The notes under the pieces: model-generated
Databases searched by the model: none
Told to the model about the DNA's origin: nothing
Seen by the model: the letters and a program-made list of their open reading frames with translations, nothing else
Program-made: the position numbers and the translations under genes
In this document: piece after piece, positions 34,002 through 35,244 of the stretch
Position numbering within the stretch: position 1 is the stretch's first letter
How the letters are laid out: each line of letters starts with the position of its first letter
NCBI GenBank assembly: GCA_963818965.1
Contig: CAWFUG010000008.1
Span: 256,001-320,000 of the forward strand
Origin: an uncultured Verrucomicrobiae bacterium
GTDB taxonomy: Bacteria; Chlamydiota; Chlamydiia; Chlamydiales; Rhabdochlamydiaceae
Length of the DNA stretch: 64,000 nucleotides
Direction of reading: 5' to 3'

Positions 34002-34538
34002 TGTATTTTAGTAAACAGATAGGGGGATACTAGAATGCGAGGTCGTTTTTTAGTCGGGTCAAAGACAGCTTCCTCCGAGAGAAATATCTACGCAGATAGA
34101 TCTTCTCTTATTCTCGATTGGCTGTTTAGGACAGGGCTGCACAAGGAAAAGGGGTTTTCATTAAGAGAGGTCGCACAAGAAATAGCGGTTAGCTTGGGCC
34201 TCGTCCAACGAGTCTTTGCTATTCTGGTTGCAAACGGAGTCCTTCGTATAGAAGGCCTAAGAACTGCGAAACGATTTTTTTTCAAAAAACCCAATCTACT
34301 TTTGCAAAGCTGGCTAGAACAGTATAGCATTGTGAAAAAATGTAAAATGTGGACCTATCGTACGGGACTTCGAGGAAAGGAAGAGATGCTCGCAACACTA
34401 AAGAAATCGCCTTTAAATCGCAAAATGGTATTAGCTCTGCATTCTGCAGCTGAAGCCCATGGGTATAAACACACCAACCTCAAGACTCTTGAACTGTATA
34501 TGCTAGATCCAGCGATTAGATCCCAATTGGAGGATCTA

Positions 34539-34704
34539 TACCCCTTCCACCTCAATCGTAACCACAAGCAAACCGATTAAAAGCCTCAAATTTCGAATCA
34601 AAGGGAGGGGGTTAATATTAATTCAATATTACCCCCTCCCTTTGATTCGAAATTTGAGAACTTTTCATTCGGTTTTCTTGGGTACGATTGAGGTGGAAGG
34701 GGTA
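34539..34704. mobile_element. Hairpin MITE family A, copy 2 (166 bp)
   Basis: 22-bp perfect terminal IR plus inner 28-bp perfect stem; TA duplications at 34537 and 34705. Confidence 0.9.
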
Positions 34705-34706
34705 TA

Positions 34707-34872
34707 TACCCGACGTGACTCAAAAGTTGGCCATTGGACCGCGCCAAAACCCCGCGATTGAGATTGCCGAAGAGGGGGGTAGTATTGAAGAAATACAACC
34801 CCCCTCTTCGGCAACTCAATCCCGGGAGTTTTCGCGTGGGTCCAATGGCCAACTTTTGAGTCACGTCGGGTA
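34707..34872. mobile_element. Hairpin MITE family B (166 bp)
   Basis: 34-bp perfect terminal IR TACCCGACGTGACTCAAAAGTTGGCCATTGGACC; TA at 34705 and 34873. Confidence 0.9.
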
Positions 34873-35244
34873 TACTTGTCTTAGAACCTCGAAAAAGCGG
34901 GTACGAAGTTTTGCTCATTGAGCCTTACTACAAGAATTTTCTCAATCTCAGTCCAGAAGATGAAATAAGGGTAGCCCCCGCTCTTTTGACATTTTTGGAT
35001 CTCTACCATTTTCCTCTGCGCGGACGAGAACAAGCCGATTTTATGGCTGAACGTATTAAGTACTTCAAGCGTGCCCCACAACTCGGCGTACTGGAGGGAA
35101 AAATTAAAGTTTCCAAAAACTTTGATAAACCCTTACCTGCTGAGGTTCTAGCTGATTTTGAGCAATGATCAGAGATCTTCTGATCAAAACTATTTTTTTC
35201 AAGGGGCTTGCATTTGTTCGCGTTTTCTTGCTACTATCTTTGGC

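Follow-up and report, generated by a model that had tools for sequence, protein, structure and literature searches.

What are the two palindromes that interrupt an antitoxin-like gene of this chlamydial genome at one TA dinucleotide, and which enzyme placed them there? In the window, that is, the whole 64,000-nucleotide stretch of DNA that was analysed, positions 34533-34880 read GATC-TA-(A)-TA-(B)-TA-CTTGTC, where A and B are elements of 166 bp (Table 1). We consider it highly probable that A and B are non-coding, rod-shaped MITEs with IS630-like ends that were pasted successively into one TA by IS630 transposases acting in trans. In such a mechanism, the transposase would bind the inner block of the element end, cut at the terminal TA and duplicate the target TA. 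A and B would probably be clients of different IS630 enzymes with one inherited interior in common.

Table 1. Features of the interrupted gene and of the inserted elements, in window coordinates
Feature	Position	Strand	Remark
Second A copy within the window	18157..18320		99% identical; another TATACCC directly after
AbiEi_2 (PF09952) antitoxin-like gene, 5' part	34035..34538	+	168 codons; frame enters A, stop at 34578-34580
Left copy of the TA target dinucleotide	34537..34538		last two bases of codon 168 (CTA)
Element A	34539..34704		166-bp rod MITE
A, Y motif	34579..34587	+	left half of the conserved interior asymmetry
A, central loop	34620..34624	+	between TATT and AATA; its orientation with respect to the interior asymmetry varies from copy to copy
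A, X motif	34656..34666	-	right half of the interior asymmetry, one extra T
TA common to A and B	34705..34706		
Element B	34707..34872		166-bp rod MITE
B, Y motif	34745..34756	+	interior asymmetry
B, central loop	34787..34791	+	between TATT and AATA
B, X motif	34821..34833	-	interior asymmetry
Right copy of the TA target dinucleotide	34873..34874		
AbiEi-like gene, 3' part	34875..35168	+	97 codons and stop; median identity to intact homologues 64%

A and B split the AbiEi-like gene exactly between two codons. In silico removal of 34539-34874 yields a single 265-codon frame from 34035, which reproduces the clean interruption described in an earlier note on this DNA. The two halves join at offset 1 and with no gap in 116 of 116 homologues that carry both (119 best non-self matches were examined of 763 proteins matching the first half), and the frame of these homologues is restored only if one single TA is kept. 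Those homologues that have names are chlamydial. The insertion is 336 bp long, a multiple of three. The gene is nevertheless broken and ends at 34580 because both A and B carry stops in its frame; an open paralogue is located on another contig (C9) of the same genome. At its C-terminus, the interrupted gene is ~25 residues longer than most homologues (265 versus ~240), and this tail (window 35092-35168) matched no Pfam family. An 8-bp inverted repeat with a 6-base spacer lies just 5' of the gene (window 33980-34001) and is possibly its operator. No toxin-like gene adjoins the AbiEi-like gene, whose neighbours encode a branched-chain amino acid transporter and a UbiE-type methyltransferase.

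The earlier note had also asked whether relatives have an empty site with a single TA at this position. Five relatives read at the insertion site lack a TA at the same place, their proteins being only ~65-70% identical. As for the order of insertion, one contig (depth 3.4) from a public sequencing run (X5) has an A-type right arm fused straight to the 3' gene half, so that B and one TA are skipped. This joint suits an insertion of A before B, but it spans 7 bases of microhomology, its A is a variant, and the contig may be a chimera. None of six other public runs had a joint at the split gene, with each of the public runs holding less than 0.2 of the words.

The shape of the two elements is unusually regular. 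Both begin with TACCC-N7-CTCAA and are centred on a G-run, a loop between TATT and AATA, and a C-run. Folded as DNA, A pairs 148 and B 152 of its 166 bases, each as a single rod. The common length, termini, centre and near full-length self-pairing described in the earlier note are confirmed. The A-B pair folds at -163.8 kcal/mol (z = -26.7), and 0 of 100 shuffles folded as well. Neither element contains an open frame of the 166-bp size or a transposase gene. The view that the arms of A and B are unrelated did not survive. Ungapped identity between the arms is 43-48%, and the best aligned identity between families is 0.59; given a bulged interior motif common to both and an alignment with 15 rods from other genomes, the arms can be regarded as divergent yet related. 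The associated proposal that structure and terminal motif are conserved, and internal sequence is not, therefore stands for ends and shape and fails for part of the interior, which keeps the bulged motif and the TATT..AATA centre.

The genome contains many further copies. A scan for terminal inverted repeats gave 99 matches in the genome and 0 in the base-shuffled genome. The resulting catalogue, from which two scan matches were removed as non-family (C4:11353 and C11:406317), holds 106 elements, including 61 of full length (158-172 bp). A TA lies on both sides of 84 of the 106 elements and of 55 of the 61 full-length ones, and this flanking, together with the frame restored by removal down to one TA, upholds the idea of non-autonomous elements that duplicate a TA. 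The full-length copies fall into families of 22 (family 0), 20 (A), 10 (B), 3, 2, 1, 1, 1 and 1. Exactly identical copies number five for A and two for B, and the five identical A copies suggest recent movement. Very short or degenerate members also occur in the window, namely an internally deleted copy at 45433-45469 and lone or degenerate ends near 1020, 59518 and 60239. The genome has a second repeat family on ACCACAGAG (541 motif matches), made of short hairpin doublets in which rods are sometimes nested.

That the stacked pair or the palindromes were created by assembly is extremely unlikely. The A-B junction is present only once in the assembly, one contig (C4) has a fold-back duplication, and several contigs overlap. 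However, the elements occupy dozens of sites, each with its own unique flanks; other stacks exist in this genome and in public runs; and the same families occur in other genomes. The fold-back of contig C4, near 11430 and within the 5' portion of the 1.2-kb IS described below, is itself probably an assembly artefact, as are the contig overlaps.

Why do two elements share one TA? Among the 55 TA-flanked full-length copies, 11 abut another element end, compared to 0.4% of all (sampled) TA sites. The three bases before the TA of A-family copies favour R (37/38), T (28/38) and A or C (34/38), and IS630 elements share this preference (R 72/99, T 57/99, A or C 94/99). The terminus of the element itself, GTA, fits R-T-(A/C). 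Stacking is thus likely explained by the end of an already inserted element (GTA followed by TA), which supplies the flank favoured by both family A and the IS630s. Given the frequent abutment and this fit of the element's own end to the target, stacking appears to be a recurrent outcome of target choice and not a single accident.

The effect of insertion on reading frames differs among copies. The added length is a multiple of three in 46 of the 61 full copies, which represent few related families, and this phasing is weak in a wider set (33/79, p = 0.07). Seven copies break a long frame, and five family-0 copies read through one. Family 0 also differs in its target preference and has ~2.8 of 6 frames open, versus 0.8 in shuffled palindromes. 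Such read-through resembles the palindromic elements of Rickettsia, another intracellular bacterium, which are described in the available part of PMC2229807 as long stem-loops of ~100-150 bp with some in-frame insertions. The five family-0 copies match this behaviour, whereas at the AbiEi-like locus stops break the gene. That part of PMC2229807 names no mover for the Rickettsia elements, whereas the rods described here have IS630 candidates.

What is the evidence for IS630? A loose end pattern led to a multi-copy IS630 element in a relative (G030) whose ends carry the same motif. The IS630 elements found here end, after a TA, with TACC-N9-T(C/G)AA, a motif that they share with A, B and ERIC. 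In a set of 86 related transposase loci, TATA(C/G)C-N9-T(C/G)RA marks 50 of the 61 left ends and 49 of the 62 right ends that could be assessed, where shuffles predict 0.1; transposases flanked by the same ends thus exist. An unbiased end search was noisy, with a repeat of at least 18/24 at 22 of 53 loci. The IS630 proteins, whose tree was built by a quick method, combine HTH and DDE_3 domains and conserve D170, D250 and E285 (DD34E). Their end motif, TA target and R-T-(A/C) flank are shared by A and B, which encode no transposase.

Beyond the terminal motif, an inner T-S-R-R block is present at 38 of 40 A-family ends and 20 of 20 B-family ends. Positions 6-17 of A match the ends of two IS630 loci, L344 and L351, at 10 of 12 bases (1 of 5000 shuffles as good). 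The inner end of A matches the clade L344/L351/L414, and the TAGTG terminus of that clade is found on some A copies. B matches the end of L342 at 21 of 26 bases (2 of 1000 shuffles as good); its ends are nearest to the clade L341/L342, and one B-family end matches L418, from the same host family, at 23 of 28. With a pooled IS630 weight matrix, the match of A is marginal (5% of random sites as good). A close correspondence was found in another genome (G197), in which the left end of an IS630 copy that runs off its contig is identical over 25 nt, including the target TA, to one end of three of the six fetched rods with the same interior. As judged from these end sequences, the likely movers are IS630-family DD34E transposases, probably of two clades, one each for A and B. 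The earlier expectation of a mover that acts in trans and is not encoded in the window is upheld, with these enzymes as candidates.

In the assembly itself, which is 87.85% complete, a profile of 73 IS630 proteins found no intact IS630 and only one truncated relic (C9:237746-237887). This relic is closest to the L344/L351/L414 clade and adjoins an end resembling that of L414. A lone end at C1:90550 is identical over 19 bases to the IS630 element of the relative G030. A DDE_3 family search of this genome was empty, the A-clade transposase query found no match in three genomes with A-type ends (G001, G002 and G101), and a search of plasmid DNA gave no match. Long-distance pairing of element ends (17 long pairs, from end pairing alone) revealed no apparent autonomous element. 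Not every family fits equally well. In family 0, the largest, just 8 of 44 ends fit the IS630 motif and none of 141 collected IS ends gave a match above chance; in families 3 and 4 the motif is shifted by one base. Across genomes, the element pattern is found in 22 of 38 IS630-positive genomes versus 56 of 262 others (odds ratio 5.1, with kin not independent), and 16 of the 38 lack it. On enterobacterial plasmids, cfr and erm(42) are directly preceded by intact IS630 elements that share the end motif (L328 and L331), and one locus (L096, G036:C335) has a pair of different, adjacent IS630 elements.

Near-perfect hairpins could also move as single strands through an HUH tyrosine transposase (RAYT/TnpA-like, as proposed for REPINs), in which case the TA would be part of one end and no duplication would occur. 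A 2-bp duplication and a 168-bp element with one TA are indistinguishable from sequence alone, and the assembly without an intact IS630 also suits this alternative. We nonetheless regard it as very unlikely. The symmetric ends of the rods match IS630 ends, with up to 25-nt identity within one genome, and rods and IS630 elements share a target preference; a Y1_Tnp search of this (incomplete) genome was empty, while 6 of 14 controls were positive. Even less credence can be given to a present-day mover from another resident family. The assembly contains two multi-copy transposase-like frames, an intact three-copy 1.2-kb IS and a two-frame transposase with copies at C9:448745-450126 and C2:49066-50447, which we take to be IS110-like, and the identical A copies imply a recent enzyme. 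However, the ends of the 1.2-kb IS are unrelated to those of the rods, and on this ground that IS was rejected as the mover; the first 150 residues of its protein matched no Pfam family. IS630 transposases acting in trans remain our preferred movers.

How do the rods relate to known MITEs? Their ends contain the terminal motif of ERIC/MITEEc1, TATACCC-N7-YTCRA; the ERIC end consensus is printed as TATACCC-N7-(C/T)TCAA in Table 1a of PMC2759123. ERIC (also IRU or MITEEc1) and MITEPlu5 resemble the rods in their TA target with duplication, their end motif, their long stem-loop and their proposed 'CCC-type' IS630 partner. In the sections of PMC6267812 available, MITEPlu5, a relative of ERIC/MITEEc1, is tied to 'CCC-type' IS630 (ISPlu3, ISPlu8 and ISPlu19) through end similarity. 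The chlamydial IS630 clades share the end motif, TA target and R-T-(A/C) flank of this type, and their assignment to it rests on the description in those sections and on one matching IS630 end at an ERIC-bearing prophage locus (L078), not on comparison with the ISPlu sequences.

The likeness to ERIC, as suspected earlier, is upheld, and it is limited to the ends. ERIC measures 123 bp and the chlamydial rods 160-167 bp; with both TAs, ERIC is ~127 bp and A and B are 170 bp. Unlike ERIC, the rods have arms paired nearly end to end with left and right ends almost identical, and they carry several end families on one interior. Alignment with ERIC recovered the terminal motif and no common interior: the whole rod profile aligned with just 22 terminal bases of ERIC-type sequences (E 0.085), the interior-only profile matched 0 of 56 such sequences, and the best blastn match of a rod to ERIC (E 0.12) fell on the bulged motif. 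Because length and interior differ in this way, A and B are best classed, on their sequences, as IS630-family MITEs that are functionally ERIC/MITEEc1-like and are not ERIC. RUP of pneumococcus and the Correia elements are TA-flanked MITEs as well, and RUP has been tied to an IS630 by end similarity, a line of reasoning like the one followed for the rods; by the description in the available text of PMC2229807, they differ in having short terminal repeats (9 and 24 bp, Table 1 of that paper) and no full-length rods.

The IS630 ends and the published link of ERIC and MITEPlu5 to IS630 (PMC6267812, in the part available) take away some of the novelty of the elements. The name MITEEc1_IS630, from ISFinder, is cited in PMC11602168, whose main text is silent on chlamydiae and whose sequence supplements may hold these elements. 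Chlamydial elements of this kind are not described in the accessible portions of PMC10969869, PMC3184786, PMC2229807, PMC5896051 and PMC9723776. In the open literature, ISFinder and subscription journals aside, we found no report of chlamydial rods, their spread over the order or the exchange of ends on one interior. Thus, the ERIC-IS630 link is already published, and the present analysis adds the architecture of the chlamydial rods, a set of candidate enzymes and the likely attribution of A to one IS630 clade and of B to another.

How is a near-perfect hairpin kept while its sequence diverges? We aligned A and B with 15 rods from other genomes, which were chosen for the bulged motif (15 of 21 passing the filter, from 105 pattern matches). 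Common to the 17 rods are ends that do not vary, a bulged T next to an AAA..TTT stem, and a TAT..AATA centre; 51 of 71 paired positions change on both sides (0 of 500 shuffles as good). Deviations in the outer arm, counted as cells and not as independent events, are mirrored in 99 cases and one-sided in 11 in family 0 (shuffled partners reach at most 57), and mirrored in 22 and one-sided in 9 in family B (at most 20). In family A, the outer 21 nt have 0 mirrored and 20 one-sided deviations, and mirroring is confined to the inner arm. With respect to the bulge, the central loop can point either way (16 to 6 in family 0), and one copy, C2:97352, is fully symmetrised. G-T and A-C mismatches are about equally frequent (23 versus 27), as expected from symmetry at the DNA level and not from RNA pairing. 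Mirrored changes, loop inversions, the symmetrised copy and equal mismatch types fit template switching between inverted-repeat arms, a process described in the available part of PMC5941160; spacer inversion is named in that of PMC8604942. The hairpin is thus likely kept by the copying of one arm onto the other at the DNA level, and such template switching would also flip the central loop. Survival of the bulge despite arm copying suggests selection.

Alternatively, IS630 may move the rods while selection on an RNA hairpin, through mRNA processing or stability as for ERIC, keeps their shape in place of arm copying. Strong covariation and a bulge conserved across genomes are in keeping with this reading, and effects of ERIC on mRNA stability are reported in the available part of PMC2229807. 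We consider it unlikely, given that G-T pairs are not in excess, that multi-base mirrored changes and loop inversions occur inside one genome and that a fully symmetrised copy exists. Moreover, no family reached its Rfam gathering score, and only generic hairpins matched below it. The single sigma-70-like match in B, which could be added in favour of a transcribed hairpin, is at chance level (1.0 expected), and a promoter reading of B was rejected for this reason. Arm copying at the DNA level therefore remains the explanation that we favour.

The common interior is carried by A with ends matching one IS630 clade, by B with ends matching another and by the G197 rod with a third end. Conversely, A-type ends lie on a different interior in another genome (G001, L401), and 5 of the 106 catalogued elements, one of them full length, are end hybrids. 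On the basis of the second interior and the hybrids, we tentatively raise the possibility that the rod is a re-keyable chassis. Its old interior, AT-rich at the centre and with a bulge that serves a function, would persist in chlamydiae by switching its transposase partner. Stacking at a common TA followed by deletion could generate hybrids whose two ends differ in kind, after which arm copying could write the new end on both sides in a single step. If this were true, the A-B locus would be an intermediate of an end-exchange cycle.

The rods are widespread. Of 301 genomes in the order, 78 contain the full-element pattern and none a reversed control. The proposed chlamydial superfamily is supported within the order and also extends outside it: a scan of all GTDB matched at least 123 stretches, and the 80 examined include Chlamydiota, Legionella, Coxiellaceae, Rickettsiella, Alteromonadaceae, Colwellia, Methylophaga and Budvicia. 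In 65 of these 80, end-to-end pairing takes in at least 60% of the bases. On viral contigs, a similar end pattern delimits 127-bp elements, the length of ERIC, at 69 of 73 loci, and their ends resemble the consensus of PMC2759123. At least one further interior type is found on the same ends in chlamydiae (L125, L151, L153, L183, L363 and others; 164-176 bp with TAs, less perfectly paired), and the interiors of gammaproteobacterial rods are different again. Neither this genome nor 24 genomes of the family yielded SbcD, which is present in only 18 of 300 of the order; its absence was rejected as an explanation because several SbcD-carrying genomes have the pattern.

In the accessible literature, ERIC-type repeats have so far been tied to IS630 by end similarity only. 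Intact IS630 transposases with ends close to those of resident MITEs, such as the 25 identical bases in one genome, make the mover of ERIC-like elements directly testable. The end motif, known from enterobacteria, now extends to chlamydiae, Legionella, Coxiellaceae, Alteromonadaceae and others. This selfish element, with two ends that evolve together, is also a natural system in which template switching can be measured. In the small genomes of symbionts, the rods continue to break genes and to add peptides in frame.
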